Assembly (NCBI GenBank): GCA_046563655.1
Contig: CM102286.1
Span: 10,168,001-10,232,000, forward strand
Direction: 5' to 3'
Origin: Yuukianura sp. NJ FZ-2021
Lineage: Eukaryota
DNA: 64,000 nt
Shown here one piece after another: positions 1 to 53,799 of the stretch. Position 1 is the stretch's first letter. Every line of letters starts with the position of its first letter. The translations under genes were made by a program, and so were the position numbers. The notes under the pieces are model-generated. The model saw only the letters and a program-made list of their open reading frames with translations. It searched no databases and was not told where the DNA came from.

Positions 1-384
1 AGTAATGTTAGCCTGTTCGTGGTATCCTAAACGCAGACAAAAAATATTTTTGTAATTTAAAATTATTTGAGAGTAACTTACTCAAACTTCCAATATTGAG
101 TTAAGTCAACTAAAGTTCTGCGCATTTTATACCATCTTGAATGTTCAAAATGGAGGAACTCCAGGTTTCGAAAATTTCCTCTTGCCATTGTTTTAGTAGA
201 GTTTCAAACCGACCATGTTGATATATTTGCCATTCAGTTGGTTCTACTGAAAACACTTCAATTTAAAAACAAAAGTGTTAGGAGAAGAGGTGTTGAAGTA
301 ACTTGTAAAATTTTAAAAAGACAAATATGTTATACCTGCTTGATGAGTTAATGCAAACAAGAAAATTCCAAATACAACGATCAT
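1..384 (-). CDS. 5' exons of a secreted protein gene (same gene as 53800-55684), running off the window edge
   Basis: ATG at 384 gives MIVVFGIFLFALTHQA (signal-peptide-like), followed by a GT donor; matches 55301-55684. Confidence 0.6.
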
Positions 385-902
385 TGTTAATATCTAATGT
401 GATAAAATATCTGATGTGAAAAACGAGTAAACCACGAACTAGTACGTTGCAACTTCTACTAGAGACTGCCTGTTAAGGTTGTGCAAAATAAAAAAAAAAC
501 AGGTTACCAAAGGTCAGGTCACTTTCTGATATTATGTCCTCATCCCCATCCGTCGCGAGTTCTGTGATACAAATAAAAACTTTTTCTTGGAAACAAATCA
601 GCGCTCCCTTCCTGACCGACGCTTGAAAAAAGCATAAGTAAAGCATAGGTGATTCGATAAACATTATCATACTCTAATTGACGAGTGTTGGTCCTTCCCA
701 ATGTTAACAGCATGACCATGCAAACTATATGTGCAAAAAACTCTCTATGTGTGGAAGAGTGGAAAGATTCAGGGGTGTCCCTTTTCCATTACTCCTCCAA
801 GCACAGACTTCCAAAAATTCCATCTCAACTCAATCAGAGCACAAAAAAGGGGGGGTCTGTGGGGGCTTGCCCCCCCAGCCTCATCAATACATTTTCGATT
901 CA

Positions 903-1054
903 ACTAGACAGAACCCGTGATGTGTACACATCACGAAATTACCTAGGTCATACCTCGGGTCAAACGAAAAAGCTAGCGGATTTTTGACAAAATGTTCAAA
1001 TTCATCCTTCCTTCATGTCATCGTGATGTGTAAACATCACGGGTTCCGTCTAGT
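903..1054. mobile_element. 152-bp inverted-repeat element with Helitron-like 3' termini (hairpin + CTAG) at both ends
   Basis: ACTAGACAGAACCCGTGATGT...ACATCACGGGTTCCGTCTAGT; each end has a GTGATGT-N4-ACATCAC hairpin about 9 nt from CTAG. Confidence 0.55.
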
Positions 1055-1591
1055 ATACAATAAACCGGTTGTAAACCGCGCATAACGAAATAGCTCAAGC
1101 CAATAGATGGTTTTCCCCCAGGTGGGGAATGTGGGGGTGGGTACTCACTCTTTTTCCCTATTCTTCCCCGTTTCCCCTACATTCCCCACCATTTCCCACA
1201 TTCACACGCCCCTCCCCCCTCGGAAGAGTGGGGGGTGGGTTCCCCCCACCCCCGGGGGAGTGGGAGTGGGTTTCCCCACTTTCCCGCATCTCCGTGGGGG
1301 AATGGGAGTGTTCCCCCACTTTTTCGCTCCGCACCCCAGGGAGCGCGGCGGTGTGTTCCCCCACTTTTCCGCCCTTCCGCCCCCCCGGGTAGTGGGGGTG
1401 GGTTCCCCCCACTATTCGGCCTCTTCCCCCGGGGGAGTGGGGGAGGGTTCCCCCACTTTTCCGCCCCCCCCCCGGGGGAGTGGAGGGTGTGGCGTTTTGG
1501 GAACAGTCCCACTCCCAACCGCCAAGGATAGAGGTGTATGGAATGGACAGTGCCTGTTATGGTAGCCTTCCGATTCTATCCTGTGCAGATT

Positions 1592-1667
1592 GTGACTCGA
1601 TAGCTTAAGGGTTAGAGCTGTCTCCCCGGATTGGAGAAGGCGTGGGTTCGAATCCCACTCGGTCACT
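1592..1667 (+). ncRNA. tRNA-like Pol III unit in LTR1 (GGA at the anticodon position; probably not a decoding tRNA)
   Basis: A box TAGCTTAAGGG, B box GGTTCGAATCC, anticodon stem TCTCC/GGAGA, T stem GTGGG/CCCAC, T6 terminator; C instead of U33, bulged acceptor stem, no long Ser variable arm. Confidence 0.8.
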
Positions 1668-1879
1668 TATTTTTTCTGCACTGTCATCGTGTGTCTCTCA
1701 AGCTATGTGAGCCCTGATCCCTCACATATGGTGCCGAAAGCCGGGAAGGCAGTGAGGGGGCTTGAGGGGCGGGTGATGTGGCGTTTGGGAACAGTCCCAC
1801 TCCCAACCGCCAAGGATAGAGGTGTATGGAATGGACAGTGCCTGTTATGGTAGCCTTCCGATTCTATCCTGTGCAGATT

Positions 1880-1955
1880 GTGACTCGATAGCTTAAGGGT
1901 TAGAGCTGTCTCCCCGGATTGGAGAAGGCGTGGGTTCGAATCCCACTCGGTCACT
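1880..1955 (+). ncRNA. tRNA-like Pol III unit in LTR2
   Basis: Identical to 1592-1667. Confidence 0.8.
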
Positions 1956-2879
1956 TATTTTTTCTGCACTGTCATCGTGTGTCTCTCAAGCTATGTGAGC
2001 CCTGATTCCTCACAAGGGGTCCCCCACTTTTCCGCCCCCCCGGGGGAGTGGGGGCTTCCCCCCACTTTTCCCACCTAGGATGGCTGCCTTATGCGAGAAT
2101 GGGCAAGGTAGCAGGCTTGCCTTACCCATCTACACTGTATGTGAATATGTTGACCTTTGATCCCGGTTTTGACCCCCTTGGAGGGGTCAGAGACCCATGG
2201 TTCATATACCAGAGTTGTTCCCCTCAATGAGAGGAACAACTTTTGTTAGGGTCATTTTCCCGGTTTTATATTCAAAAGGTCAATGACCTTGACCTTTGAC
2301 CCAGTAAAAGGTCAAGTGTCGGGATAATATTTAAACTTGATCTGGCGGCCGACATGAGATGTCCATTGGTGAAAACCCGGATAAAAGCGGACCAGTAGTT
2401 TCCGAGATAATTTGGCGACTCGGACAGACAGACAGACAGACAGACAGACATGAATCAGATTATTAAATAGCTTTCGCTATTTAATAAGTGTGCATTTTAG
2501 TATACAACAAACTTCAGCAGCTCTTTCCTCTTTCAGTGGCTTCTAATAAAGCTTAAACAATCTGACTCTCGTTGTTTTCTACTTGACCTCATACGACCTT
2601 ACTCTGGCTCCACTAGCATAATCTGGAGTATGCGTTTTTATTGGTCCGTAGCCCGAGTAAATGTAAAGATTTTGAAATTAGTTTTTTTTTAATTTTCGAA
2701 CTGAAAAGTACATAGCTTTATTTTTTTTTAACTAAACTTTTGACTCATTGGGTTGTCGACGTTACACGCAAAAAGTCCAAAATTTCAGCTCAAATTTCGG
2801 AAGATTTTAAAGTTTCGATGCTGCGGCTGCAGTGGTAAAGCAGATTTCAGGAATAAAACCGACAACTTTACGTCAGACA

Positions 2880-3500
2880 TCAGACAGCAACTAGTCTAAA
2901 CTTCATTCTCTGTTCAGCAACACTTCCAAACCACAAGTGATTTCTCTCTGAAATGTCTGTCACTTCTGCATCGAATTTAGTGACAAACTGTTTCACTAAT
3001 ATTTTTAAAATGTTTGTTGAAATATTTCTGCCTGTACATGCATGTACGCCGGCACGCCACAACCACAGTAGCTTAGGATCCATCTTTTCCGGGTTATCTT
3101 CACGCATCAACCGCTCCGGGTTGTAATTCTGCGCCTGTTCAAAAATGTCATTTCCCGGTTCCATTTCAAAAAGAAGCGATCCAGGGACTGCTACTACGTC
3201 CACGCTTCCTACATAGTATGAACCAACTACGGAGTTTGCATGGGGACTACGAACACTTACAATTCCATTACCATTTAAACGCATGCCTTCTATCACACAA
3301 GCATGTAGAAGCTTGTTTCGCAGAGTTTCATCTATACTTGCTCCGCCCAACTCTTCTTGTAGTTAACGCCAAAGGTCCGAACGACTAGTTAATTCTTTTA
3401 AAATTTGCATGTTGTGAGGAAAGTGTTGGAAGTGCGTGGTGAGCAAGATTTCGCATACTTCTTGTGCTGATAACGTCTGAGGGCCATTAGCAGTCGCGCG
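2880..3500 (-). pseudogene. Cytochrome P450 C-terminal fragment, divergent and intronless
   Basis: ExxR (EGMR), PERF-like (YNPERL) and heme motif (WRAGVHACTG); in-frame TAA upstream (LWR*LQEE); no N-terminal half evident. Confidence 0.7.
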
Positions 3501-4351
3501 AGGAGTATCGATCAAAAAAATTGTGAACTTACATTTTCTAATAAGCTCAACCTTTGCAAAAACGTACTCTTTCTCTGCCCGCTGGTTTATTCTCGGTTAG
3601 TTTGCTTTAGCACTTACCTTTCTCAAAAATATAATTGTGAACTCTTTAGTATATCGGGTATGTGGAATTGTCAATCCTTATATAGAGCATTTTAAGAGGT
3701 TCTTAGCATGTATGCATTTAATCTTACTAAATTTGAATATTTCGCGGTCGCTCTGCTTAACGTTTCCATGTTTTCAATAAAATTGACCAAATTTAGCATG
3801 AGTAAAAGTCGTAAAAATAGTCTATCCAAGGTTTAAAGTATTAAATAAAAAACATAAATGCAGATTTTGAATAGAACCAATATAATTTAAAATCTCAATT
3901 ATGCTGCTTCGCATATTAATTTATGCATTACCTAACCCAAAAATTATTACATAAAGTTGGCGGTTGAATTATCAAATTGATATACTTGAATACCTAGCGT
4001 GTTAACTAACCGCGGTAAAAAATTACCAATTATTATTAGAAAATTTCATTGCGTTTCATATATCTAATTTATCGTTTTATTAGAATTTGGTACTATATTC
4101 AATTGTTATTAATTGAATTGAATTGAAGCTCCTAGCGCAAATGTATGCTTCATTGGCCATCTTTATCATCAGTAATATTCATTGGGAAGGGGATATATGT
4201 GGATGAAAAATTAAATTTAAAACGACCTGTAGAAACGGTATTGAAACCAAATAACCTTCGCAGCAACTCCAGCAGTTGAAAGTAGAGTGCTTTTTTTGAA
4301 ATTTTGTGGTAATGATAAAGTTAAAACTTATTGTCTTGACAGGGATAAAAA

Positions 4352-6001
4352 TCAGAGATTTCGTTCTAGAATCCAGTTGCAGGCATTGCTGCCTTCCCAC
4401 GGATTCTGGAGGCTGACAGCAAAGCTAGATTGTGCAGACGCAGTACCGTTACCCGCTGAGTAATGGCAGAGGGACCTTTGTGAAGGCCCGCCGAAATTGA
4501 AATTAAAACTGATATCGGTGGTTGTGTGTTCATTTTCGTGAACTGGCGTATGTGTCATAGGGAAAACGGGGTTAGCGGTCCACGCAATTTTTTCATCAGA
4601 TGACCTGGAACTGAGAAAAACGGAAGATCCACCGCTCGTAACTAAGCCAAAGTGTTTTTCTGGGTCATCCACCTTTCGTTCCAGTCGGAACTTGAGGTCA
4701 TCACCACTCTCCAAAGGTAGTAAAATCCAACTGTGGAAAACGAAGGAAGTAAAATGAATTTCTTGTTAAAATATTCTGAATAAATGTTTCACTCACCCGC
4801 ATAATTCCTCCAATCGGTTAAGTGGTTGTTCTCGCAGTACCACGACTTCCAGTTGTACGTCTAAATTGTCAACATTGTTTCTGGTGGAGCCTGGGTAGGA
4901 TAATTCACGCAAATACATGCCATTTCCAACATTCTTAATACAAAGCACTCTTCCCCAGATTAGGTTTTGAATTTGAAGTGGGAATTTTTGCTTGATTTCT
5001 TCTGAAACGTCGAATCGGCGAGCCAATGATGCAAGTCTAATAGTGTGTTGTGATGTGATGAGATTGAAAGACGACAATTTGGCAAGTGTGCTGTTCACCA
5101 CACTGTCTGTAAGATGGCGATCGTGACCTCCGAATTCGGTTAAAAACCAGACGATTTTTGGAAAGCCCATCGTAAATGCTTCGGCAGTAGAAGAAATGTC
5201 GTTCAAAAAGGATTCGATCAAAAAAATCAGTTCGTCCGCATCGTCAACGTCGCGAATCACTGCGCGCATTAAATCTGAATCTCGGAGTACGATGCCTTGC
5301 ACAAGTAGCTCCAAGTGTATTTTAGAGTCCTAAAAATAATAACTATAATTTTACTTAAGAAGGGGACTCTCATCACTCAAGTCAAAAGCATTTTTATCAT
5401 AGAGAGAATCGATTCAGCGACTACGATCACACGTTTACGTACCTTAGCCCATCCTTCAAATTGTATAATCTTGTTTTGAAAATTAGCATAGCTTGTGCTG
5501 AACGCATCTGGACATCTACTGGGACCTTCGGTGAGCCACTCTTCTCGTAAAAAATTTGCACGGGTTTTGATGGCTTCCAGCTGACTCAACGTGGTGGAAT
5601 TGGCGCCAGCGCTTCTTCCCCTGTTGATTACTTCATCTGCTTCGGCATCAATTAAGCGAAGTTGTGCATTAATTTCTACAGTACGCTTCGGGCATGCGTT
5701 GGCTTCTGGATTTTGCGCAATGAGAGTCAGAATGTCACTGAGTCCCGGTTGGGCCGCAACCCGACGCGTCCATTCTCTAAACAGTGAGTCCAACTTGTGG
5801 CGCTGTTCGGTTTCAGTAAGACGTGCAGATCCTGTGTTCAAGCAATTGACATTTACAAGCAGAAAGTACTTGGCACTTGATTAAAATTATTTACCCAACG
5901 GTAGCTTTACAAACTAGTACCAAAGTTTCAGACTCACCTGAATTTCCTCTTACTTGGTTCAACACTGGCAAAATCAATATGATTAATGCTAAATTTCTCA
6001 T
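4352..6001 (-). CDS. Secreted 4-exon protein: helical N-terminal region plus 30K-lipoprotein/ricin-B beta-trefoil-like C-terminus
   Basis: Signal exon MRNLALIILILPVLNQVRGNS (6001-5938, GTGAGT donor); motif FPLQIQNLIWGRVLCIKN...YLRE; paralog at 53800-55684 shares an intron position. Confidence 0.65.
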
Positions 6002-6923
6002 TTTGAGTTGCCTGGCAACTTGAAGCTGCAGTTGCAAATGTTCTTTAACAGAAATCCTTAACTATGTTTTATTTCAGTTTGTCGTTTGTTCCCGGATTCA
6101 AAAATCTCAAATGCCGTAGAAAAGCAACACACTAATGGAAGCGTCATATCAATATTAAAAGTAACTAGGAACGCGAGTTCTAAGAGTTGTAGGTCGACAT
6201 TGATTAGTCGAGTTCTTACGAACAGTTGGTAGCTTCTGAGAAAGGCTCTTGAAACGAAAGAATATCTTCAGGTCAAAGGTCAAGCATTAGATTCATTCCG
6301 ACTTAAGTTACTTAGCAATTCTCTATAATATCGGCATAAGTATTAAATTATCGCAATTCTAATCAAAAATGTAATTTATCACAAAAAGGCGTCGTGTGCA
6401 GCACCGTGAACTCAAATGTTGATCAAACTATTCTGCGACTTAAAAACGTCAAGCAGAAGCTAACATTATACTTTGCAGCAACCAATTCTTTGAAAATGTG
6501 ACGTTAGCTGAAAATGACATTAAAGATCACGGGTCAAACAACAGATTCTTGGAATTGGTCAACTTTTTACAGTAAATCTAAAATAAGCAACCTGAGATTA
6601 CGGGATCCTAAGAAATTACATCCCTATAATTTCTTTTGGTTTAGCAAAGTCCAACTTACTATGAGATTAACTTTAAGTTTTGCAAACTAAACTCAACTTT
6701 CAGTTTAAATTTGTCAATTGCGTTTAGAAGTGCCTTTCATCTAAGTCAAACCCTTCAAAGTGTCGTCGACTTTTTCGAGTCTAAAAATATTTACCTAATT
6801 GTAACTTTATCCTACTAATATATTAAAACAGCTGATTTAATTGTAGTAACCCAGAAATTTTGTGTATCTTTATAGATGGGATTGTAGATCGAAGTCATCA
6901 AATATGGTAAAATGGTTTGCATA

Positions 6924-8538
6924 TTAATTTGAATCATGTTTCAATAAATAGGTCGCCATGTACATGACGGTGAAAAGCAAAAACAGAGCGGGATAAGCAA
7001 TTCTAGCAGCCACGTCCACTTTTTTGGGCCAGGTCATTTGGGCGTACCTTTTCAATGGATTGGCCTTTGGGTCAAGCAGAGTTACCTCAGATTCAGCAGG
7101 AGATTGGTTTCCACCGCCCCAGTAGTTGACCAACACACAAATGACCAAAGCAGAAAAAACAAATGTTAGGGAGAACCCGGTCCACACGTCAATGGCCTTC
7201 GTGTACGACACAGGAGGCGTTGCTGCATTTATAAACCACGTTGCAGAAGACATTATGAGCAAGGTTACCAAGGTCAATGTTATTCTTGCGCTTGTCTCCT
7301 TTTGATCAACCCAGAATGCCATATACGCCACAATCACGAACATCGTCGTGGGAATGTAGACTTGAATCAAGTAGTAAGAGAACTCACGTCGAAATAGAAA
7401 ATCAACACGAAGACAACTGTAAACTCCTAGCGTTAAAAAAAACGAGATTTAAAAATCTAAAGTTAACTTGTTGCTTTGCGGCTGGATTTGAAGCTGCTGC
7501 TAACCTGTGTTAGTATGAGAATCACAGTAGTCTGTCGTAAACTGCTCCAACGCAAATCGAGGCAAATGAAGAGCCGGGGTCACTTGTACTGGGTCATCAA
7601 TCTTCCATTTAAAAATTAAGTCGTCAGTTGTAAATCCGTCTAGGACCAAAAAAGAATATCAGAAGGCCAAACTGGAATGTTGTACTTTGGCTTTCTTACA
7701 ACTGGCCATGCGGAGGCTGCAAGTTTGCTTGTCCAGTGGGTACAGTTTTAGTATCATTGGGCAACTTAAAGTAAGGCTCACTCTGAAATAAGTATGAACC
7801 TAATCAGTGTTAGGCAAAATATCAAGGTTTTTAATAAAATATATTTAATCACACAAGAAACTTTACCTAACGCTGTACAGGACCTGCCCATCCGGGAATA
7901 TCCGAACGTAAACGTTTGGTTTGAGAAGATCATGCAGATGACCTTCCTTTTCATTGGAAAAGAACAAATCTGGGATCCAGACCTTAGAAGACGTGCTCAA
8001 GGTCAAGTACTGTTTTTGTCCTGCCAATTCTGGAGAGGATTTGCCCCAGGCCAACCTTTCGTCGAGCCACAACATTCGAAATGTCAACTGCGTTTTGTAG
8101 ATCTTTCGAAAAAAAATTAAAGTTGAAAATTTTTTCTTTTGGACCTAAAATTCATTTTAACAATTACCATTTTCACGTCATCGATATCATCAACTGACCT
8201 CACGTACATGTTGACATTCACAACAGTTGCTCCTGAAATATTTTTTGTTACATTTTGCACGTAATTTTCTGTTGAATACTCTTAGTACTATATAAATATT
8301 AAACCTGTGCCATTAGCTCCTTGTGGACGAATGTGAGTATCGTAGTTCTTCGGATCCAAAATTGAATTCAAAGTTTGCCGCTCCATTTCTTGAATTGATA
8401 CTCCGCCTCTAATATTTTAGAAAAGAATATTTTAGTAAAAAAAATATTTCAAATGAATATGAATAATTCTTACACTCGGTTTTGGAAGAGTAACGCCGTC
8501 ACAAAGCAAAGCAAAAATTCGACGCGGTCCGTTTTCAT
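6924..8538 (-). CDS. Cys-loop ligand-gated anion channel subunit, glutamate-gated chloride channel-like (multi-exon)
   Basis: Signal peptide from ATG 8538; WIPDLFF, Cys-loop CPMILKLYPLDKQTC, loop C YCDSHTNTG..YSC, M1-M4, PPVSYTKAIDVW. Confidence 0.9.
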
Positions 8539-11315
8539 TTCTTTCTTTTTTGTTTGACTTATCGATGTTAAGAAGTTTCTGAATTCGTGAAGTTTTTAGA
8601 ATTTTTTTTCAAATGTGAGCTTTGATGATGAACTTCGAGAGCCGCTGCTTTGTTCAATGTCCAAACAATTATGTTCATAAAGTGTTGCAGTCTTTACTTT
8701 AAATTGACCATAGTGACCTTCCAAATCATCTTTCCAAACATTATCCTAAACAGTCAGTTCATGTTAAATTCACGTCATTGCCACTTAGTTTAAATTAAGT
8801 CTGGTTAAGACGCAATGTATGATTAATGCTTTATTAAAATTTTCCACTGTCAGCGTCGCATGTTTTTACAGGAAAATATTGTTGACGCAATAAACATGAA
8901 AAACATGGTTATACTATATCATTGCGAGCGCTTTATTTAATTTCGCTGGACTTTGGATTTTCAACATTATTGGCTTGACCTTGATAGATGAGCGAATTTA
9001 TATTCACTGAGGTGAGACCAAGTTTTGATGTATTTAATTGCGTACACTCCTTTGAGCTATCGCATATGTCGATTTTGTGATTTTGATGCAACCGTCTAGT
9101 GCTAACTTATAGTAAGACACCTTCGGAAGTGCAAAAATAATTTCTCTTTCAAATTTTTTAAATCTGTGGAATAGCGCAAGAGGCGATCGGACTTATAAAA
9201 CTTAAGTGAACTTATATAATCACTTTGAAAAATGTCGCTTTACTTTCTGCGACCTTTTGGACAACATCCTGTTTTGTTTTTTGATCTAAGATGGTTTGAT
9301 TTTTTCTTTGGGTTGTGTCGGCTCTAAAGATGTGTCGTAAACATAACTTCAAAACAAGCAGTCACCAGGACATGGATACTCGACACTGTTATAGTGTTTA
9401 TTTTGAAAGCCACAATATTTGTTTTACCAAAACACCTCCGTCTGACGTTTGAAACTTTTAAATACAAGTTCTAAAGCACTTCAAAATTTTGTGTCCTATA
9501 TTTTGGCAATTAGCGGAATCCCGTCATATGCCACGAATTTAATTCATAATCCACCCAACGCAATTTGTTAAACTGCAACGAGTTCGGGGTTTTGTACGGT
9601 TTTTGGATTGTCGGGCGTTGACCTGCCGCGCTAAATTGCACGGAAAGATGAACTGTTTGATCCCTCACCGTTCTCTTTCTGTTAATAAAGGTACTTGAAT
9701 CATTTATCTCCTGGACTTTCACATTCCGGTTAACTTGATTGATTTTGTCACGGGCATGGTGCTGGCTGATAAGTGGAGCAAAAAATTAAAGTTTATAAGT
9801 GTAAAAAATATGTATTATGAAACGTAATGGAGTTTCCAGGTTGTTCAACTCGTTTTCAAATTAATTTATGACACTTATGTCTTTTGGTCGACTCTCTTCA
9901 TTAGTTTTACCATTATTGCCATCAGAACCTCTACGGGAAGCGTTGCTTTCTTTAGTAAAGAAGTAAACGTCGAAAACGAACCGATCATGTAGACGCCGCG
10001 CATACGAGACACTTCAGCCATTTATTAAAGCGTCTATACGCATACGAACATTTTTCAGCATCATCTCAAATTGAATTTTTCATAATATGCTTCCCTATTT
10101 GGAATGAATTAAACTTAAGTGACTGCTTGCCAATCAATTCTGAAATTGATTTGCTTTATGTACGACTTAAAGGCTTGGGAATACCCTGCGGACGGGGTCG
10201 AAGTGCGCTTGATGATGAATTTTAAAATGGTTTAGCTCAGCACAGGAAGGTCGCACAGTACAGTGACCAAATAATAATATACAAAGCTTGAGGAACAGAC
10301 TGGATCTTGTACTTTCAAATAAAAAATTGCAAAAAGTTTTGTGAAACAAATTGTCCCAAGTTATTCCACATACGGTTCAAACACACAAAAATATTTTTCT
10401 ACCCCATGTTGTCCAATTCTTCAATGTTTGAGAATGATTTTCAACGAGCCAGAGTAAAGGGGTTATTCGGTTTCGGTAATTAATCAAATTAGGTGATGCT
10501 GGGTTGCATGCAACCAGTTCTAAAAATGGGAGACAAAATCGTAGCACAATCTTCTTCATATGCTACGATGAAATATAGAGAGCTAATCAATTAAACTTTA
10601 ATACAATGGACATTACACGTGTGGATATTATTTTAGACTAATGTTACTAATCAAGGGCTGAATAAAAAAGTGTGTCTATTTTCCGAAAGAATGATAGTTT
10701 TATGCATGAAGTAGTAAAGCAATAAAGTAATATATTACAGTATATATATTTATTCATACTTTGAAATTGATTATTTAATCTGTAAGCGATTATTAGAAGT
10801 ACTTTTTTAATGCTGAAGGTATAATTAAATTAGAATTTATCAACTAAAATTTAGCCATAAAATGAGCTAAATAAATACTTCTAATGTCATATCTGTCAAT
10901 CTGCCCGAAGTTTTTGTTCACGATTTAATCAGTTTGCCTGATTTCCTTCTTGTTCTAATTTTAGTTTTAATAACTTTTCTAAGAAATTTTTACGGAAAAG
11001 TACAGGTTAGGAGGAGGTGACAATGAACTTAGTGAATCACCAGCGTCTTATTAGTAAGAACAATTAAAAAAAAACTTAACAAAGTGTTTTTCTTGGACAA
11101 AAGACAATGCCAGGGTGTAGTCAAGTTAACATTGTCCACCCATGCCAAATGACTTTAAAGCCAGAGGAAAAAGTACTACATTGGGCTGACGACATGTTTT
11201 TCGGACAGTCCAGATTTGGAAATCGCTTCTGCTCAAACTTCTTCCAAGCCTATCGAATCCAACTTACTAACTAATCTAAAGTAAAGCTAACTTAAAGTTA
11301 CTTAATTGAGCAATT

Positions 11316-12764: not shown

Positions 12765-15700
12765 GGTTCAGTGCATATATATTTTGGGCTTGCAAACTGG
12801 AGCATGATTTTGGTCCAATCAAATCGTAAAATTGCCAACACAATTTTGGCGAATCAATTCTCTATTCCTCCAAAAGATCTATGCTCAACCCGTGAGCATC
12901 GCCCTACCGTGTTTCATTTCGTGGTACACGAGGGAGATTCAGTTTCATATACTACATGGGTTGACACAGGGGTCAACTTTACATCTGACGAACTGTATTT
13001 CCTCACCAACCCCAATGTACAATGAGTTAGATTAAGTGTAGAACAAAGATGAGGCTGTACTTGTGACGTCATTTTTGTTGCGCTAATTAGTAGATGCTTG
13101 AACTTTTCCATCATCGCCATCAGCCCGCCTTGTGACCTCCTTACCAAATGAAAGCTCAACTGCATTACGTTAAACAGTTCATAACCCATTATAATAGTTA
13201 TTATAGTAGAAATAGGGTCCCTCCCTATTTCAGTGTTTCTTCGTGAACAATTCGGCACATACAGGAATGGTAAACAGCGTTAGCCCCATTCATTTGTTAA
13301 ATAAGTTTATGCACAGCACAACCATTGAAATAGATGCCTCATAGGAATCTGAAGCGGTATTTTGGATGTCATCGACTACTTTGTGCAAGTGGGAATCGAC
13401 AGTTATTGTGTCATTGCTTGCTAAAATATCAAACTCGAGTAAACCTGTCATATGTGTTTTGATGTAGACAACCGCTTGCCGAATTTTTAGTACCAGTTCT
13501 ATCGGCAAAGCGGAACCTATTCCTACATTGCTCATTCCACGGCGAATAATGTTATCAGCATCGACAGCATTGCAAATAGTTTGCATTCCAACTTTTCCCA
13601 ATGCTCCTGTGCACTTTTGTTTCAAACTTGTGACTTCCATTTCGCATATGGAATATGCTGCACCGACATAGTTTTCGCAATACAACTTCCAGGAACAGAG
13701 GGATCCCTCCATCTCCGTCAAAACATGCATCATAACAACTAGGTGTGAATGCATGGGATCAGTAATTTCATTCTTGATTTGCATTCCAGTCTCACCCAAG
13801 GCTTGGAAGCTTTCCAGCACTCAGCCTTAAGTTTAAGTTTAGCGCAAGTGTACTGGAGAACTACACGACCCTACAAATTTTATTAAAAGAACCCATAATG
13901 ATATGCGCATATGTGATGGAAATTCACTTAGCCAAACATGGAAAATTTTGTATAGTTGATAAGTTACTTGGACCGTGATCCTCGACTTGAAGCAAGTTAT
14001 AGCAGAAATGGCTTATGCTTCCATTCATACGCTGCAACATCGTTCATGATTTGCAGTAACGATATGATGGCTTTCGTTTGTGTACGCGTGGCACTAAAGG
14101 TGTATTTACAATATTGGCTTTCTACGGCATTGATCTCATTGTATATTGGGGTTCAGGTGTGAAAGCTCAACTGCATTACGTTAAACAGTTCATAACCCAT
14201 TATAATAGTTGTTATAGTAGAAATAGGGTTCCTATTTCAGTGTTAGCTTGCCGAATTTTTAGTACCAGTTCTATCGGCAAAGCGGAACCTATTCCTACAT
14301 TGCTCATTCCACGGCGAATAATGTTATCAGCATCGACAGCATTGCAAAGCGGCGCTGTCTTTCTCGAAACGAAATGCTCTTGTCATTCATATCCAGTTCA
14401 TGTACAGCATCAGCGACCGTCTGCGCACTTGTTGCGGTGACAAAAGATGATGGTGGTGGCAACTCGACTCGTTTTTGTAAAAATTGTTCTTCCTGCTCCG
14501 ACAAACGCATTTCCATAAGTATAGCTCAGGTCGGTCAGGGCCACCTCCCATTGATCTCCAGGCAGGCTGATGGAACTTGCCAACTTATTCTGGAAATCGC
14601 AAATTAGATTGCCTGGAAAGTAGTCCATCGAAGCTTTCGATTGAAGCGTAACGTAGAAAGAGTTGGATGTACTCGAACCAGTTGCAGTCATCATCTTGTC
14701 GTTGTCAAAGCACGAATCCTTTTAAATGAAAGCACGAATCCATAAAAATGTGAGGCACGAATCCTAAAAATTGGTTAGCACGAATCCTTTTAATCCAAAT
14801 TAGGGTTACCTCAAATCCAAAAATACGTAGGTAGGGATGAGTAGAATTGTAAGCTCGAATCCACAAAAATGGCTGGCACGAATCCTTGAAGTCTTTTCTT
14901 AACAATTTGTGTTCATCCAAAAGAAGCGAAAGCACGAATGAACAAAATCGCTGAGCACGAATCCTCAAAAAATGATCACGCTGGATCCTCCCCACACAAC
15001 GTTCGGCTGCCCGATCAGCCCCCTCACGGGCGCGCAAGGGGGGACCTTGCCTCCGACTCCATCTCTCCTTCAAAACTTTTCCCAACGACAGACGTTTCCT
15101 CCTCCTCCTCTTTGATGCTTCGTCCCTCCCTTTCGGAATACATTTTTTCCAGTTGGATTAGCAGCCCTCCTAACAAGCCTCTTTGCAATAGGTGTAGCTT
15201 TAGCTCTAGTAGGTGAGGGACGATGAATTTGAAATGGTGGTGGTTGGGGGTTTTCTTCAAAAACGTCTTCTACCTCTTCCTCTTCCTCCTCTTCGTCATC
15301 GGTTCCCCTTTCATTCTGGCTGGCACTTGGTGTGTTGTAATTTGATCCCGCCAGGTTCTGTTGTTGTTGTTGTCTTTGCTCAAAAAATATGGCTGGGAAA
15401 GTGATTAGGCGTGAAATTCCAGAGTTTGGAGCAGATCCATCCACAATTTTTGGAGAAATGTACCTCTGCAATTGGTCTCGAACTTGTATGAATCCTTCGG
15501 GAGCTCTAATATGCTTTCGATCCTTTCTCGCATTTTTACTTCCTTTTAGCTGCTTCAAAATGTAAGGTTCAGTAACATCTAGAAGATTTCCACTCTGATG
15601 CTGGGATTGGAAATTATACTATCTCCAAGTTGAGTTCCGTAAAAAAGTTTTGATTCATTTTCGTCTTCTTGAAATCCCTCATGTTCACGGTCACCCGCAA

Positions 15701-16900
15701 CATTTTTCACCAAAATTGGTTTGGATTCTAAAATATGACGTTTTTGTGCAAGTTGGAATCGACAGTTATTGTGTCATTGCTTTCTAAAATATCAAACTCG
15801 AGTAAACCTGTCATATGTGTTTTGATGTAGACAACCGCTTGCCGAATTTTTAGTACCAGTTCTATCGGCAAAGCGGAACCTACTCCTACATTGCTCATTC
15901 CACGGCGAATAATGTTATCAGCATCGACAGCATTGCAAATAGTTTGCATTCCAACTTTTCCCAATGCTCCTGTGCACTTTTGTTTCAAACTTGTGACTTC
16001 CATTTCGCATATGGAATATGCTGCACCGACATAGTTTTCGCAATACAACTTCCAGGAACAGAGGGATCCCTCCATCTCCGTCAAAACATGCATCATAACA
16101 ACTAGGTGTGAATGCATGGGATCAGTAATTTCATTCTTGATTTGCATTCCAGTCTCACCCAAGGTTTGGAAGCTTTCCAGCACTCAGCCTTAAGTTTAAG
16201 TTTAGCGCAAGTGTCCTGGAGAACTACACGACCCTACAAATTTTATTAAAACAACCCATAATGATATGCGCATATGTGATGGAAATTCACTTAGCCAAAC
16301 ATGGAAAATTTTGTATAGTTGATAAGTTACTTGGACCGTGATCCTCGACTTGAAGCAAGTTATAGCAGAAATGGCTTATGCTTCCATTCATACGCTGCAA
16401 CATCGTTCATGATTTGCAGTATCGATATGATGGCTTTCGTTTGTATTCGCGTGGCACTAAAGGTGTATTTACAATATTGGCTTTCTTCGGCACTGATCTC
16501 ATTGTACATTGGGGTTCTGGTATGGAAATACAGTTCGTCATTTAATGTGAGGTTAACCCTTGTGTCAACATGTAGCACCTGAAACTGAATCTCCCTCGTG
16601 TACAACGAAATGAAACACGGTAGGGCGATGCTCACGGGTTGAGCATAGGTCTTTTGTAGGAGTAGATACGACTTAACTCATGTTCGAGCGGCCACAAAAC
16701 CAATGAACAAAAATGAGAAACCGGTTTCCCGAGACTCATGCACCAGAGAGTCGTTTGTAATTTTCAGTGCCTTCACTGGTGCTTCTTTGTGCACGAGTTG
16801 CTCCAAAATTCCGTTGGCAATTTCACGATTTAATTGGACCAAAACTATTGTTCCAGTTTGCAAGCCCAAAATATATGCACTGAACCAAGCTTGTTTAACT
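12765..16900 (-). mobile_element. Scrambled Maverick/Polinton-like relic with internal direct and inverted duplications
   Basis: FYVTLQSKASMDYFPGN...WEVALTDLSY (about 14520-14694) resembles the Polinton minor-capsid N-terminus; about 13380-14160 is repeated at about 15743-16520; about 12765-13030 is an inverted copy of parts of 16495-16890. Confidence 0.55.
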
Positions 16901-18355: not shown

Positions 18356-21052
18356 ATGCTCCCACCGGGGTTCTCGTTTAAAAGTTATAACATCAGTAGT
18401 TATGAAATTCATAACTCGATTTCAAAGGTCAAAGACCTTTTAACATTTCCCGCCATTTGGAAACTGTACAACGCAGGACACGGGGTCACCAAACTTAGCA
18501 AAGGTTGTCAATTGCACCTAGAGGAGGCGGTTAGACAGTTCGGAAAAGAAATATGGCCGATTCAAAGTAAGTGAAGTTACAAATGCACGCATTTTTTTAA
18601 TTAATGCGATTTATTCTTGTCACTTTTCATTTGTATTTTTTGTATTGTAATAATAAATGTGCAAAATGTATACAAACGCTTTTTCTGGTATATAGTGGCA
18701 GATGCATGGGGTAAATTCCCAGCAGGTCTTCTGTCTGGCCACATAGGCATGATGGGCGACTTTGAAGAATGTATGCTCATGCGCGGAAGTGTTCAAGATC
18801 AACACAATGCTTCAGTTCCATTTGGAGGTCGCTATTGTCCAATGCATCTGGTTATGTCACAAGAACTTTTGGAAAACATTAACACAAATTTTAGTTCCGA
18901 GGTTAGAAATCAAACTTATTTCAACTTTTATTTCCATTTCATTTTTTAAAAAAAAATCAATTTTTAAAGCAACGCATGAAATTAAGAAAGACTTTTGCAA
19001 ATATTTTTTTAGACAGATAAACCACTTTACTCGATTGGCGAAGAATTGAATTTTTTAATGACGCAACCCACGCTGGCAGCCTGTCTTCCGACAGCATGCA
19101 CTCGAAACGATTTCAACATCTTGTTCAGTTCATTGACCTCGGTAGCTCAAGGTTTGATGACCCCTATCACCTCTTACTGTCAAACCGATGATAAACCACC
19201 ACTTGACGGAGCAGTTATTGCAATGATGTATGAAGTTCAAAATTACAAAAATCTGATAGATGTATTGATATTTGGAAATTGGATTTTTTAGGGTAGTGGT
19301 AGCACTGATCTTGTGCGTTACTTTAGTTGCAAGCGCTCTAGATCTTCTGTTGGATCAGAGGTCAAGGTCATCGTCAAAACTCTGGAAGGCATTGATGTCA
19401 TTTTCAGTGCCAAAAAATGTTCAAAGGTTGACTTCGATTAATGCGTCGGATGACTTGGGATGTCTCCATGGCCTGCGATTTGGAAGTATGTGTTGGGTAG
19501 TGCTGATCCATACTTGGAGCATTCTTTCTTACAGTGCAATCTGGAATTCTTTCAGAATGAGTACAGTAAGTATTATTAAGTTTGCAAGAAATATTAGAAT
19601 TTCTATTTAATGTTGACTTTTTTGTCAAGTACTACGAATCATGGTCAATTCTCACAGTGATCAATGGATCATTTTGTGTTGACACATTTTTTACACTCGC
19701 TGGCTTCCTAATTTCCTATCAACTTCTTCGCGGATTGGACAAACATGCAGACGAGAAATTCAATCCACTAAAGCTGTATCTACACCGTTTTCTAAGGTTG
19801 TTGACCTAACCCAATCTAAAAAAAAACACAACCTACTTAAACTAATTTTTTAAATATGAGTTTGCTTATTTTAGAATTACTCCTACCTATGCATTTCTGC
19901 TGGGCCTGATTGCCACATTTCAGCCGTACTTGTCCAATGGTCCAATGTGGAGTATCATTGACATGAATTCAAAATATTGCCGCAGAAATTGGTGGCAGAA
20001 TTTGCTTTACATCAACAACTTGGTTGCGCATGATATAACTGAGGACCCCACTAACGTACCTTGTTTTGCTGAAGCCTGGTATTTGGGATGTGACATGCAA
20101 TTTTTCATTGTTTCCATTTGGCTGATTTTCTTGATTTGGAAACACCGTCGTACCGGTTTCGTTTTGTTGTTGGCAACAACCATCGTATCAGTAGTCACCC
20201 CTGGATGGATAATCGGCGCCAAAAATTTGATGCCGACGAGTATTCCGTTTCGACCGTAAGTAGAATTTCTGGAAAGTTTTGTCCAGATTTTTTAAGCATG
20301 ATAGCTTATAATATTTGGTTCGAATTAAAACAGACCTAGTGGAGAGGAAACTGGCAATTATGACATTGACGTTTATGTCAAGCCTTGGACTAGATACGGA
20401 CCATACGTAGCAGGTACGTAGCCGTTGACATAGCTGAAGGCCATTGACCTTAAATTTTGAAGTGTTTATAATTTTTAATTGTGAAGGAATTTGGACGGGA
20501 TATGTCTACTACTTGTTTAAGAGTACGCACTTTCGATTCAGTCGTCCTGTTACATGGATAGGATGGTCTTGCGCCACAGCAACTGCTCTGGCTGTAGTCT
20601 ACGGACCTGTGCGGTTCTTTGACCATGACATTCCGCTAGGAAAAGTCGAATCCGTACTCTACGGAGGACTGGCTCGATTGGCATGGGGAGCTGTAGTTGG
20701 GTGGATAATTTTTGCATGTTTAACCGACAATGGCGGACCGATAAACCGATTCCTGTCAGCGAAACCTTTTGTACCGCTCGGTAGAATAACGTTTTGTATG
20801 TATCTTGTTTCTTATGAACTTCAACAAATGTTTCATGCTCGCTACCCGCATCCACTGTCTTATGATGTCTATTTTTTGGTAAGTGATGCATAAAGTATTT
20901 AAACTTATTATAAAACTAAAGTTTTGACTATTTTTTTATAGGTTAACTTGTTTTTGGCGCACTTGACGCTATCGATTCTCATCGGATTTTGGATAACAAT
21001 TTTAATTGAATCTTCATTCACCAGCTTAACTAAAACTATTTTAGGAAGCTAA
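18356..21052 (+). CDS. Nose-resistant-to-fluoxetine-6 (NRF-6)-like O-acyltransferase, multi-exon
   Basis: DAWGKFPAG..GDFEEC (NRF domain), CLHGLRF, VDTFF, YLHRFLR|ITP, WYLGCDMQFF, YVKPWTR; stop at 21050-21052; exact start uncertain. Confidence 0.88.
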
Positions 21053-21099
21053 CTAACTAAAAATGAATTTTAACATAAATATGAATTTGGAAAGTTAAA

Positions 21100-22145
21100 T
21101 TAAAATGTGAGGAGGAGATTGATGAGTGTTCCAATCACTATATCTTGCATCACAATGGGATAGCTATTTTTGGCAACAGTTGTATTTCCAATTTTCAAAC
21201 GAATGACCGGAGCTGATCTGAGAACTGCTTTGTTCAGGCGGGAGTTTGCAAACTCCGCGAAAATTTCCCTGAACTTTACAGAATTTTCCGTAATATTGAC
21301 ATGGAATTGAAGGCAAAAATAGAGCGCCACTGAAGAATTAATAACACATAACCCCATGAAGGAAATGGCGGCAATGCTCAACTGTCCCCAGAATCTGAGG
21401 TTGAAGTAAACTTGGGTTCCGCGCCTCTCCCCACTCGTGCAAATTTTCGCGCTAGTTCCATTGTCCCCACCAAATGTGTATCCACCAGCCTTACACCGAC
21501 TCCCCCTAGCGGCTGAAGTGAAACTAGCGAATTCGAGCTGGCAACGTCGCACCGTTGCTCCAGTGTCCCCACCCTACCCAGGGCACAGATAATAAATATA
21601 GTGAGACTAAATTAGAAAAACCAATACACAAAATCAGTATTGTAGGACATTCACAGACATAGTCACTATTGCGTGCTTAACCAAACCTAACGCCGCGCCT
21701 TCGGCGCGGAAACTGCATTGTACCAAGAAGTTTCGTGCTGAAATTTCACGAAAATGTTTCTTTGCAGTTTCCGCGCCGAAGGCGCGGCGTTAGGTTTGGT
21801 AATGCACGCAATAGTGATTACGTCTGTAGGTTTGGCGGACTAAAAGTCTCGCAATAGTGATTACATGTTCCCTAGTCCCTAGTGGGCTTTTCTACAGCGG
21901 CTTTTTTACATTGAAGCAACACTACAACGTTGCCAGCTCGAATTCGTTAGTTCGACACCAACCGCTAGACGGAGTCGTTGTTTTAGGCTGGTGGGGACAC
22001 ATTTGTCCCCACTTGGTGGGGACACTGGGTGGGGACAATGGAAGCAGCGCTAAAATTTGAACGGGTGGGGACAGGCGCGGAACCCAAGTTTACTTCAACC
22101 GAATCTGATGATGCAGAACAGAGCCGTCGATACGACGTTGGCAAA
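21100..22145 (-). pseudogene. 3' remnant of a 7TM chemoreceptor, disrupted by a MITE
   Basis: Near-identical to the last exon of 40963-42360; similarity resumes after the MITE at 22109 and stops near 22145. Confidence 0.85.
21399..22100. mobile_element. MITE with 8-bp TSD and GG-starting TIRs (Merlin- or hAT-like)
   Basis: TIR GGTTGAAGTAAACTTGGGTTCCGCGCCT; TSD GAATCTGA (21391-21398, 22101-22108); empty site in the paralog near 41254; internal palindrome 21661-21820. Confidence 0.9.
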
Positions 22146-24863: not shown

Positions 24864-25268
24864 CTGTTCAGATCAAATAAGAAACCGCAAAAACACCTGC
24901 GCGTCGCCATGTGCTTTTTTCCCATAAGAAAAAAGAAGCTACTCACTCCTGCCTTCCTTCCCTGAGAAAAGAGGGAAGATTCTTTTTTGACAGCGAAAAG
25001 GAAGAGAATTTCAAGTTGCGCGGCTTGCAGGTGTTACCGCCAACAAATGATTTTTTTCTAAAGGAAGAACTCACGAAAAAAAATAGTTTCTAGAGATAAC
25101 ACCTGCATGCCGCGCAATTCCTAATTCTCTTCTTTTTCGCTGTCAAAAAAGAATCTTCCCTCTTTTCTCAAGGAAGGAAGGCAGGAGTGAGTAGCTTCTT
25201 TTTTTTATGGGAAAAAAGCACATGGCGACGTGCAGGTGTTTTTGCGGTTTCTTATTTGATCTGAACAG
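24864..25268. mobile_element. Long-palindromic MITE with TA TSD
   Basis: TA|CTGTTCAGATCAAATAAG...CTTATTTGATCTGAACAG|TA; near-perfect arms of about 170 bp. Confidence 0.9.
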
Positions 25269-36233: not shown

Positions 36234-37305
36234 TACCGTGTGCGCCAGCGAAAAGAGTACACCCTCAATTCAGTTTCCAAGGAAACAAGTTTTAAAATGG
36301 GCAAACAATGGGGGCGGGGGGAAAACGAGAGAGCAAAATCTGTGAAAATCGTGTTTCCTTTTTTTCAAGAAAGAGGAAATTATTAGCCTGTCGATATTTC
36401 TTTTTCGTTTATCGTTTAATTAGGAACTGCTTCGTTCTACATAACGCCTCAGTATACGATTCAGCATCGCGCAGAAATGGTAGCTTATTACTATCAACAG
36501 TCTAGTTTTAGAAAAGCCCAGAGTGTTTTCAGTGCCGTCCATCCAAATCTTCCGATTCCTAGTATTTTTACCATTCAGAGAGCTGTGAAGAAACACGAGA
36601 TACACGGCAGCCAAGAAAATCGAAAAAGAGTCGGAACCAAAAAAGCCACCAATGACATGACCGCTGCATCCATTTTACCCTACGTTTCTGCAAATCCACA
36701 TGACTCAACACGACGAATTGCACAGAGGTCAGGAATTTCAGCAACTTCTGTACGAAGAATCCTGAAACGCGAACGGTTTCATCCATATAAGATGCAATTC
36801 CATCACGCCTTAACTGACGATGACCCGAAAAGACGAATCGAATTTTGTGAGCAAATGATGGACATGTGCCTGCAGGATCCCACTTTGGTATCAAAAATTT
36901 GTTTCACTGATGAGGCCACATTCTTTTTGAATGGACGCATGAACCATCAAAACTTTCGGTTTGTAATTTCCACTTAACCTATTCTTGTGATTCCGAATCA
37001 AATTAAGATGAAATTATAATCGCACTAGGTATTGGTCGGATTCGAATCCACACTGGATGAGGGGGTCCAAATCTCAAAATGCTCCAAAGATCAACGTTTG
37101 GGCTGGTGTAATTGGTGACACCATTATTGGCCCTTTCTTCTTTGAGGGAAACATAAATGGTGAAAACTTCTTGGACATGCTGGAATCAGAAATAATTGGG
37201 CCCGCTGAAAATATGTAATATGTTTCCCCTCATAGTTTCCTTGGTATCGAAAATAAATAAGGTTTTGAAATTTTGGGTGTACTCTTTTCGCTGGCGCACA
37301 CGGTA
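36234..37305 (+). mobile_element. Tc1/mariner element (rosa/DD41D-like), 3'-deleted transposase with an intron
   Basis: Perfect TIR TACCGTGTGCGCCAGCGAAAAGAGTACACCC, TA TSD; ICFTDEATF..NHQNFR|YW..NPHW...INVWAG...IIGPFFF; downstream catalytic residues missing. Confidence 0.92.
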
Positions 37306-37831
37306 TATGTAGAAAGTTGAAATAAGAATTCAACTCAAAATAAAAAATTTACGAAGTAAGTGGGATGCCACAGAGAAGTGCTACTCCGCGAAGAACCAAT
37401 TGTTTGGGCGGGGTGTCGGTCTAGAAAGCAATATATCCAATGTAGTTGGGGTCCGTCCGACGCGGGTTCCTGTAAATTGGACACTCGAACAGCCGCGGAT
37501 CTTTGGCCTAAGTTGTGTTCACTGCAAAGATGAAGATGACTGGAACGGGTTCGTAAGAGCACTTTGGGCTTGCTGTCCACCAACTTCCCAGAACGTTTCT
37601 CTACGGAGGCTCCCTCCACGTTCAGGCAATGCACGTACACACCTGAAACAATCATATTTTACATTATGTAACAAAAAAGAAGAAGCCGGGTGGGATTGAA
37701 CCCACGTCACTTCTCCCTCTATTCAGGAAAATAGGCCAACCAAGTGACTGATTCCATTTCTCTGCGATTAGGCCAATTTCATTCCGATACACAACTTTGT
37801 TATTATAATTACCTTCCATCGGTGGTTGGTT

Positions 37832-38385: not shown

Positions 38386-39190
38386 TCGCTGGTTGGTTGA
38401 TGTCTTCCTTCCAGAATCGAGTGACGACGTTCTGCAGAACGACGGAGTCCAACGCCCATCCTTTGTGTGCCCGTGTGACCTCCTTTGTTCAAACAAACAT
38501 TTTGAAAAAAACTGTTTCAGAATTCTGAACACTTTTTTGAACAATTTTTTGAAAATTTTCTCTACCTGACGCATGGCGGTAAGGAATACTTGTGGATTGA
38601 AAAACCCAGTCATCCAGAAAACTGGTGGTTTTCCAAACGACAACCAACTGCGATAACTGGTTACACCGCTCCAGCAGTTCAGTAAACCAAAAGCCAATGG
38701 AACTCGAATCCCAGCAAATCTGAAAAGTCAAAATTTCAAAAACTAATTTCAAAACATTTTGAAAAAACGATTCCGAAATTTATGACTTACCTTCCTCCAA
38801 GTTGGTGGAACTTGTGCATTGTACATTGCGTCGAGTGACTCCCGTAGCACACTGCTCATGATAATTGTTCCGTCAATTGCCAATTTCAAATCACTCAAAG
38901 TTTGGCGCACTACTAACAAAACTTTGCCCATTCGATCCAACTCCTGTTTCAGAAAAATGTTCATCGGAAGCAGAGATCCTAGCTTGCTCAGCGCATCTTT
39001 CACCTAAAACAAACCTTTCAACTTAATTAACTACACAAGTTTAACTCAACAATTAATTGCACAGTAATTAACTACTTAAGTTAACTAAAACTTGATTACC
39101 TGAAAAGAGACGTAGGGAAGAGGCAACTTCCTGAACATTTCATCCGCCAGACGATACACAACGTCCTCTCGTGACTCTCCGCCTGCACTC
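38386..39190 (-). pseudogene. Axonemal dynein heavy chain (DNAH5/8-like) internal fragment, 4 exons
   Basis: [65 protein letters not shown]; frameshift near 38655; introns retained. Confidence 0.9.
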
Positions 39191-39224
39191 CCGCTCTGTT
39201 TCGGCTGAACTCCGAGAATCAGAT

Positions 39225-40913: not shown

Positions 40914-40962
40914 AACTAACTAAAAATTAATTTTAACATAAATATGAATTTAGAAAGTTAAA

Positions 40963-51491: not shown

Positions 51492-51591
51492 NNNNNNNNN
51501 NNNNNNNNNNNNNNNNNNNNNNNNNNNNNNNNNNNNNNNNNNNNNNNNNNNNNNNNNNNNNNNNNNNNNNNNNNNNNNNNNNNNNNNNNNN
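51492..51591. other. Assembly gap
   Basis: 100 N. Confidence 0.99.
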
Positions 51592-53025: not shown

Positions 53026-53799
53026 CCGATTAAAGTTTCCCCAATAAACTTTTCGCCAATTAAAGTTTCCCCGATTAACTTTTCGCCGATTAAAGTTTCC
53101 CCAATTAAATTAACTTTTCGCCAATTAAATAAATGGGGGAAAGTTAACTTTTTTTAATTCGGGAAACTTTAATTGGCGGGGAAAGTAAAATAGTTTTGCT
53201 ACTAATATCCCTCCATATACAAGAGGATATAACCCACGATGTAACTACCTGCCTGCATGCAGGGTATCAGTGGCAAATAAGTAAATGACAAGAACGGATG
53301 GTTCCCAGAACCGGTTCTCGTTAAATACAACAACACTAAAGCTAAGTTACTAAACTAATATAAAAAGAGTCTAACTACAAAATTAGTTGTCGATACGCAA
53401 GCGAATTAAACAAAACGTTTTGTTCTAGCGACAAAACTAGTCGCAAAAGTTCGAAGAAAAACACTTTACAGGCGATACTTTGATACTCCTTTGGGGGTTT
53501 ATGTAGTAAAAATAAGATAAAACCCTCAATTGAGAAAGAAAAAGTTCGAATTTCCCGCACAAACGGTTCCCGGTTCTTTCAACCTGAAGGATCCGGATCC
53601 GCAGTAATGGCGGTTCCCGGTTCCCAGATGAGCTAGGAGCAGATCGGGATCCGAAGTAGCGGTTCCTTCTTTTAGGAAGAACGGAACCGGATCGGGATTT
53701 GGAACCGCGGTTCAGGGAACCGTTAGGATCCGAGATCCGTGAAACTCTATTTAAGATGCTCAAATTATTTTTTGTGTTATAGTTTGTAAACGAAGTTAA

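Follow-up and report, generated by a model that had tools for sequence, protein, structure and literature searches.

A putative Helenus-type TRIM with a tRNA-derived Pol III gene in each LTR and a tRNA-Phe-type primer-binding site

A complete, non-coding TRIM of 527 bp occupies positions 1488-2014 of the 64,000-nucleotide stretch of DNA analysed here (the window), as established by reading of the sequence and by global alignment of its LTRs. With a probability placed at about 0.88, the element belongs to the Helenus type, within the class named TRIMp3, and would thus be a non-autonomous retroelement whose LTRs both harbour a Pol III gene of tRNA origin. Helenus designates TRIMs with tRNA-derived sequence in their LTRs, reported from fungi, one plant, and six animal phyla, and TRIMp3 is the joint name for Helenus, Ajax, and Cassandra (Kojima 2024, PMC10886601). 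On the text of that work, the element appears to form a family of its own and to use a primer type so far unreported in the group, since word searches of the main text and of the consensus file found neither.

The two LTRs, like all other parts of the element, lie on the plus strand. The 5' LTR (1488-1726, 239 bp) and the 3' LTR (1777-2014, 238 bp) both run from TG to CA and are 99.2% identical, the global alignment placing only two differences between them: a 1-nt indel, by which the 5' LTR has one extra T in the run at 1495-1498, and one substitution, C at 1719 versus T at 2007. The internal region (1727-1776) measures 50 bp, and consists solely of the dinucleotide TA, the primer-binding site (PBS), and a purine-rich stretch. 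The PBS, at 1729-1746, starts 2 nt (TA) past the 5' LTR and is complementary at 17 of 18 positions to the 3' end of tRNA-Phe, while the polypurine tract that follows it, at 1747-1776, holds 23 purines in 30 positions and has a core at 1755-1773 (15 of 19 purines) that ends 3 nt before the 3' LTR. The longest stop-free stretch across the whole 527 bp is 85 codons, and the element is devoid of coding capacity. A 239-bp direct repeat of 99% identity, accompanied by such landmarks, is far beyond what chance could generate.

Within each LTR lies a tRNA-like gene, at 1592-1667 in the 5' LTR and at 1880-1955 in the 3' LTR, both called on the plus strand by ARAGORN as a 76-nt tRNA-Ser(gga) and both matched by the Rfam tRNA family RF00005. 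The layout of a Pol III promoter is preserved: the A box, TAGCTTAAGGG, is found at 1601-1611, beginning with TAGCT at 1601, and agrees at 9 of 11 positions with the textbook consensus, while the B box, GGTTCGAATCC, at 1645-1655, is perfect (11/11). A run of six T resembling a Pol III terminator is located at 1670-1675 of the plus strand, 3 nt past the tRNA-like gene of the 5' LTR, and the motif scan finds the corresponding T6 run of the 3' LTR, also on the plus strand, at 1958-1963. The thermodynamic fold of the tRNA-like gene of the 5' LTR is cloverleaf-like (-28.3 kcal/mol, z -1.78), mildly better than that of shuffled sequences. The cloverleaf, the A and B boxes, and the T6 run that the original prediction had assigned to each LTR are thus confirmed by ARAGORN, Rfam, and the T-run scan.

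The fact that two kinds of annotation, ARAGORN and Rfam, both call a tRNA at these positions evokes the question of whether the window simply holds two functional tRNA-Ser(GGA) genes. Such a reading is very improbable. The Rfam alignment does trace a full cloverleaf; however, its score of 39 bits exceeds the gathering score of 29 by only 10, a deletion and a non-standard pair are seen in the acceptor stem, and the long variable arm, which is a defining trait of tRNA-Ser, is absent. This degeneracy speaks against a working tRNA-Ser, and, judged from its sequence, the tRNA-like part is a tRNA-derived pseudogene that maintains an intact Pol III promoter layout but does not encode a working tRNA. 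The same has been described for most tRNA-like parts of Helenus elements, which are non-functional tRNAs (Kojima 2024, PMC10886601). The warning that automated tools would mislabel the element was well placed, as ARAGORN and Rfam do call it as tRNA genes.

The insertion is embedded in a GC-rich satellite with a period of approximately 45 bp (repeat families D2 and D3), which occupies 1120-1487 and resumes at 2015-2075. The element is flanked by two copies of AGGG on the plus strand, at 1484-1487 on the left and at 2015-2018 on the right, whereas a 5-bp reading of the TSD fails, GAGGG and AGGGG being unequal. The satellite provides its own paralogous empty sites: an intact monomer lying upstream, at 1444-1470, is 96% identical to 2015-2041, the sequence that starts at the right AGGG, and this uninterrupted monomer has AGGG only once, at the matching place (family D3). 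Since adjacent monomers contain AGGG a single time, the motif was duplicated upon insertion. The TRIM anatomy of the original prediction, which comprised LTRs of 239 and 238 bp with two differences, a 50-bp internal region holding PBS and polypurine tract, and AGGG as TSD, therefore stands, both on the sequence and on the alignment.

A different view of the locus would be that a region with a tRNA gene was duplicated locally in tandem, with no retroelement involved; two 239-bp direct repeats lying 288-289 bp apart, with a tRNA call in each, are indeed what such an event could leave behind. This possibility is scarcely credible, and is already contradicted by the anatomy of the element. The repeats end precisely in TG and CA, the intervening 50 bp correspond exactly to a tRNA-Phe-type PBS followed by a purine tract, the whole unit is flanked by a 4-bp duplication, and it breaks a satellite monomer whose neighbours are intact. 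In addition, contigs of two organisms contain pieces of the unit at high depth, and a third sample holds a variant of it (see below).

The original prediction had looked to further copies with different TSDs. Within the window, a second whole-element copy is present on the plus strand at 56789-57315, but it has neither flanks nor a TSD of its own: it is 100% identical to the first, has the same flanks, and lies inside a 55.3-kb duplication, in which positions 1-8700 of the window are repeated at 55301-64000. Since the two copies (1488-2014 and 56789-57315) are identical, share their flanks, and lie within a duplication, they represent one insertion event and not two independent ones. The second copy arose either by segmental duplication or by assembly; the window also contains an assembly gap of 100 N, at 51492-51591.

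Evidence for a wider family comes from public sequencing runs. Seven of the nine runs listed for the element contain all or part of it, and the positive ones include four of one organism, one of a second organism, and one sediment metatranscriptome. Contigs were compared in four of the nine runs, among them DNA runs of two organisms (X1 and X3) and the sediment metatranscriptome (X4). In X1, word depth is 709 for the exact contig at 1653-1726, 463 for that at 1697-1805, and 995 for that at 1807-1970, and in X3 the exact contigs have depths of 54, 37, 93, and 62. These exact pieces cover the LTR as well as the junction from LTR through internal region to LTR (1697-1805), at depths of 463-995 in X1 and 37-93 in X3, alongside low-depth contigs of 15-31 and 8-9, respectively; contig word depth is not a copy number. 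The bin at 1977-2013, which holds the T at 2007 that is private to this copy, reaches a depth of just 5.45 in X1 and 3.09 in X3. The contigs also suggest that the T4 run of the 5' LTR is private to this copy.

The boundaries of the contigs are informative as well. In both X1 and X3 a contig ends exactly at 1726, the last base of the LTR, and the next contig leads from the LTR into the internal region and on into the next LTR; we infer that this break is a branch of the assembly graph at the true LTR terminus. Furthermore, ten contigs of X1 have in common the 3' part of the tRNA-like gene and diverge upstream of it, while others diverge past the T run and retain a short motif of the LTR tail, which suggests the existence of sister subfamilies. 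Taken as sequence evidence, the contigs suggest a multi-copy family bounded by TG...CA ends. Joints in X1 that lead from the satellite to 2056-2233 were considered as candidate empty sites and rejected, their sides measuring 21-28 letters, below the 31 required. No element contigs were placed in a further run, X7 (share 0.10), and an exact 23-mer of the LTR has no match in metagenome, viral, or prokaryote-genome contigs.

The metatranscriptome X4 contributes two contigs, at 1509-1670 and 1641-1826, with depths of 8-17. The second of these, which leads from LTR through internal region to LTR, derives from a different copy, as it has a 2-nt insertion after 1725. X4 is an RNA library in which DNA carry-over is possible, and RNA ends cannot be read from its contigs. 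Neither the satellite nor the downstream repeat next to the element is covered, an absence of coverage that proves nothing and is not taken as evidence of transcription.

The identity of the host can be approached through the other contents of the window, where exons match a Cys-loop neurotransmitter receptor, NRF-domain acyltransferases, a dynein heavy chain tail, and a Tc3-type transposase, as well as, with a borderline score, a P450. These matches indicate that the host is an animal. The receptor exon matches glutamate-gated chloride channels, nearly all of them arthropod among the 120 matches listed; its best single alignment, at 64% identity, is equal for an ostracod and a damselfly, and the top ranks (ostracod, nematode, and malacostracan) reflect scores summed over duplicated domains. 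By sequence similarity, the exons of the window are those of a protostome animal, with best matches to arthropod proteins. A homologue search with the borderline P450 exon found nothing. Similarly, a word-based search found no homologues of an 870-aa single-exon ORF, for which a full HMMER search detected 29 relatives at 22-30% identity; the 20 that were examined are all metagenome proteins. The host is thus a protostome that has been poorly sampled, and it is met with in sediment samples.

Assignment to Helenus relies on several shared traits: a short pair of LTRs, each with tRNA-derived sequence that includes A and B boxes; an internal region reduced to PBS and polypurine tract; and a T run past the tRNA-like part, a feature also visible in published consensus sequences (PMC10886601). 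The dimensions agree as well. Published Helenus elements have LTRs of 104-323 bp, internal regions of 43-621 bp, and full lengths of 311-1263 bp (314-1263 bp in animals), and all animal families with a determined duplication have a 4-bp TSD (Table S1, PMC10886601); at 239/238, 50, and 527 bp, with a TSD of 4 bp, the element agrees with animal Helenus in each of these dimensions (Table S1). It differs from known members in its tRNA-Phe primer type, which is not named for Helenus in the main text, and in its host, which is apparently not among the listed species, the listed arthropods being all Hymenoptera (PMC10886601). A 22-nt word of the LTR has no match in the consensus file of that work, in a word search from which the 70-letter line wraps can hide words, while a generic 14-nt B-box word occurs there once, in a fungal family.

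These comparisons also revise parts of the original prediction. Its reading of the element as a TRIM analogous to Cassandra, both LTRs of which harbour a tRNA-type Pol III gene, is supported by the anatomy and by the tRNA calls. Ajax, the name it tentatively gave to tRNA-bearing TRIMs, in fact belongs to the 5S-rRNA type, the tRNA-bearing ones being Helenus, and the lophotrochozoan origin that it mentioned is too narrow for a group also found in fungi, in a plant, and across six animal phyla (PMC10886601). Nor is the element new in kind, tRNA-bearing TRIMs having been described as Helenus in 2024 (PMC10886601). Among the matches listed for literature from 2024 onwards on Helenus or TRIMp3, the other works on transposable elements comprise a study of sugar beet, a review, and a meeting report whose relevant passages add no hosts; the remaining matches deal with butterflies or use the name in further unrelated senses.

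Membership in the two other groups of TRIMp3 was also considered. No 5S rRNA family matches positions 1480-2020 at E up to 1, tRNA being the sole match in this interval. Cassandra is reportedly a 5S-rRNA-bearing TRIM of plants, described by Kalendar in 2008. It resembles the element in that a Pol III gene, with its promoter and terminator, lies inside each LTR, and its mode of action corresponds to the one proposed here for the element, but it carries 5S rRNA and inhabits land plants, whereas the element has a tRNA-like sequence (PMC10886601 and PMC7215508). Membership in Cassandra is rejected on the lack of a 5S match and on the presence in the window of animal genes, such as the Cys-loop receptor and NRF-domain exons. 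Ajax, like the element, is an animal TRIM whose LTRs contain a Pol III promoter derived from a small RNA; however, Ajax has a 5S rRNA fragment, a 5-bp TSD, and a tRNA-Leu PBS, and is known from two nemertean species (PMC10886601), and membership is rejected because there is no 5S match and the TSD measures 4 bp and not 5 bp. Finally, tRNA-derived SINEs (SINE2) have a similar tRNA-derived head with A and B boxes, but are mobilised by LINEs and possess no LTRs, PBS, or polypurine tract; SINE2 elements have been proposed as the likely source of the tRNA-like module of Helenus (PMC10886601).

The primer-binding site merits separate consideration. A Drosophila oligonucleotide complementary to tRNA-Phe(GAA) begins with TGGTGCCGAAACCCGGGA in its printed form (10.1101/699934), and so does a printed human primer for the 3' end of tRNA-Phe (PMC10993922). 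The PBS of the element, TGGTGCCGAAAGCCGGGA, agrees with TGGTGCCGAAACCCGGGA at 17 of 18 positions, the reference in this comparison being the tRNA-Phe of Drosophila and human. The tRNA-Phe assignment at 17/18 that had been proposed from the sequence is thus borne out against these antisense oligonucleotides, as printed in the two sources (10.1101/699934, PMC10993922). The G at the mismatching position is not confined to this copy: the contig that contains it matches exactly, and at high depth, in two runs.

Primers named for Helenus are Lys, Leu, Trp, and Arg in Hymenoptera; His, Leu, and Lys in vertebrates; and Lys, His, Ile, Pro, Glu, and Ser in bivalves (PMC10886601). The term "tRNA-Phe" does not occur in the main text of PMC10886601, the per-family primer assignments being given in its FigS1-S3, and "Phe" does not occur in its consensus file. 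The first 11 nt of the PBS likewise have no match in the consensus file, whose line wraps at 70 letters can cause words to be missed.

In metagenome contigs, the 18-nt PBS has 46 matches, none of which lies in a tRNA gene; five of the 46 loci match the element over more than 24 nt, with a longest match of 29 nt. At three loci (L009, L022, and L024) the same 18-mer is preceded by CATA, an arrangement that resembles an LTR end followed by a PBS. A 659-aa ORF follows at L009, with no Pfam match at E up to 0.001 and only a sub-threshold match to an Arc capsid (E 0.0026). These three loci may lead to gypsy-like elements that share this primer site, and carry no evidence on the present host.

The presence of a PBS and a polypurine tract suggests that the element follows the standard route of LTR-retrotransposon replication. 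Its RNA would be packaged and reverse transcribed in trans by the proteins of an autonomous LTR retrotransposon, from a template that extends from the 5' LTR into the 3' LTR, with host tRNA-Phe priming the minus strand and the purine tract priming the plus strand. The autonomous partner is probably of the Ty3/gypsy type, in view of the 4-bp TSD and of the data on animal Helenus, thought to be mobilised by gypsy elements from the similarity of their primer sites (PMC10886601). No autonomous partner is present in the 64-kb window.

In the preferred model for the template, Pol III would initiate near 1592, where the tRNA-like gene of the 5' LTR begins, and a fraction of the polymerases would read through the T6 run at 1670-1675 and stop at that of the 3' LTR, at 1958-1963. 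The product would be an RNA of approximately 372 nt in which the tRNA-like segment serves as the terminal repeat R. Read-through is a necessary part of this model, since the first T6 run should stop most transcripts after approximately 80 nt. Within the predicted Pol III unit, the two T6 runs are the only runs of at least four T, the sole T4 run of the element being located in the 5' LTR upstream of the tRNA-like gene, and a motif scan of the whole element finds no TATA-like hexamer, AATAAA, or ATTAAA. It is the absence of such TATA-like and polyadenylation hexamers, the absence of any run of four or more T between the T6 runs, and the upstream position of the only T4 that favour a Pol III template. 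In Cassandra, the RNA extends from the 5S of the 5' LTR to that of the 3' LTR, and only 18 bp are repeated (PMC10886601); with so short a repeat in that system, the real RNA ends of the present element may differ from those of the 372-nt model.

With the Helenus structure unchanged, the replicative RNA could instead be a Pol II transcript, initiated in the LTR or entering the element by read-through from its surroundings. Under this view, a SINE insertion would have left the tRNA-like part behind as a passenger, or that part would have another role, for instance in RNA stability, packaging, or chromatin. This alternative is a tentative one, and on present evidence the less probable. It gains from the position of the T6 run, 3 nt past the tRNA-like gene, which would stop most Pol III before U5 and the PBS are reached, and from the fact that the Pol III promoter function of Helenus lacks experimental validation (Kojima 2024, PMC10886601). 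The X4 contigs include 1509-1591, the part of the LTR that lies upstream of the tRNA-like gene, a finding that fits either model. The lack of Pol II signals in the element weighs against it, as does the quality of the A and B boxes (9/11 against the textbook consensus and 11/11). Moreover, in Cassandra, which is the nearest analogue to have been validated, transcription reportedly proceeds from the Pol III promoter (PMC10886601). The choice between a Pol II and a Pol III template leaves the identity of the element unchanged.

The Pol III model can be joined to the remaining observations in a broader, more speculative proposal, which as a whole is rather unlikely. The element would be the first Helenus of a poorly sampled, sediment-dwelling protostome outside the host groups of 2024, with an unreported tRNA-Phe primer; it would be young and still transcribed, and its tRNA-like gene and T6 run would together act as R, which would make replication dependent on regulated read-through of the terminator. 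If this were true, the element would offer a compact natural system in which to study the problem posed by a terminator in the 5' LTR of Pol III-driven LTR elements.

For annotation, the four tRNA-Ser(GGA) calls in the window represent parts of a retroelement, not tRNA genes, and tRNA counts will be inflated in genomes with such families, as shown for rust fungi (Kojima 2024, PMC10886601). The clean and apparently young copy described here, with its paralogous empty site, should serve as a reference by which to find the rest of the family and its autonomous partner. With this element, a class defined only recently gains a host and probably also a primer type, tRNA-Phe, and these additions support the view that TRIMs with Pol III promoters arise repeatedly.

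The Helenus-type TRIM lies within a GC-rich satellite (1120-1487 and 2015-2075), whose units of approximately 45 bp, resembling CCCCCGGGGGAGTGGGGGAGGGTTCCCCCACTTTTCC, contain palindromes, and whose depth in public DNA sequencing runs is high and uneven. This region forms part of a larger repetition, in which the initial 8.7-kb segment (window 1-8700) recurs 55.3 kb downstream, at 55301-64000, with an identity of 98-100% and with differences that cluster in the satellite. An assembly gap of 100 N is located at 51492-51591, 3.7 kb ahead of the second copy, and the repetition could represent either a true segmental duplication or an uncollapsed assembly.

Several host exons and genes accompany the element. 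A borderline P450 exon (2883-3362, minus strand; 22.7 bits versus a cut-off of 22.8) lies approximately 870 bp downstream of it. At 6927-7448 and 7866-8144, also on the minus strand, are exons from a Cys-loop receptor gene that resembles glutamate-gated chloride channels. Genes carrying NRF and acyltransferase-3 domains occur as two paralogous copies (18605-21573 and 39135-41433) separated by approximately 20 kb, with 92-96% identity in the repeated stretches. The minus strand also harbors a single-exon ORF of 870 amino acids (46573-49185), with segments that look transmembrane, for which no match was found in Pfam. Its 29 relatives share 22-30% identity with it; all 20 of those looked up are unnamed metagenome proteins, and one relative displays a weak match to the ligand-gated ion channel family (PF00060). 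The ORF may belong to a divergent ionotropic receptor family from a poorly sampled animal group.

Other repeats and a transposon remnant are dispersed through the window, including a direct repeat of 99% identity with a spacing of 2363 bp (13380-13679 and 15743-16042), and a Tc3-type transposase helix-turn-helix domain (36420-36974, plus strand), which is the remnant of a Tc1/mariner element. Three long hairpins (21656-21825, 24985-25149 and 53075-53189), whose matches to plant microRNA families fall far below threshold, look like MITE-type inverted repeats. Outside the element, a lone tRNA-like 3' half, which contains the B box GGTTCAATCC and has a T run after it, is present at 37673-37716 on the minus strand; it is 80% identical to positions 146-188 of the element's LTR, and could be a piece either of another Helenus subfamily or of some related SINE.

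Beyond the window, 'CATA' followed by the 18-nt primer-binding-site variant exactly as in the element was detected on three metagenome contigs, at loci L009 (2001-2018, minus strand), L022 (1265-1282, plus strand) and L024 (1569-1586, minus strand). In L009 the primer site is followed by a 659-aa ORF with a below-threshold match to Arc-capsid (gypsy gag-like). These sequence matches suggest that environmental eukaryotes carry LTR elements with the same tRNA-Phe primer-site variant as the element.
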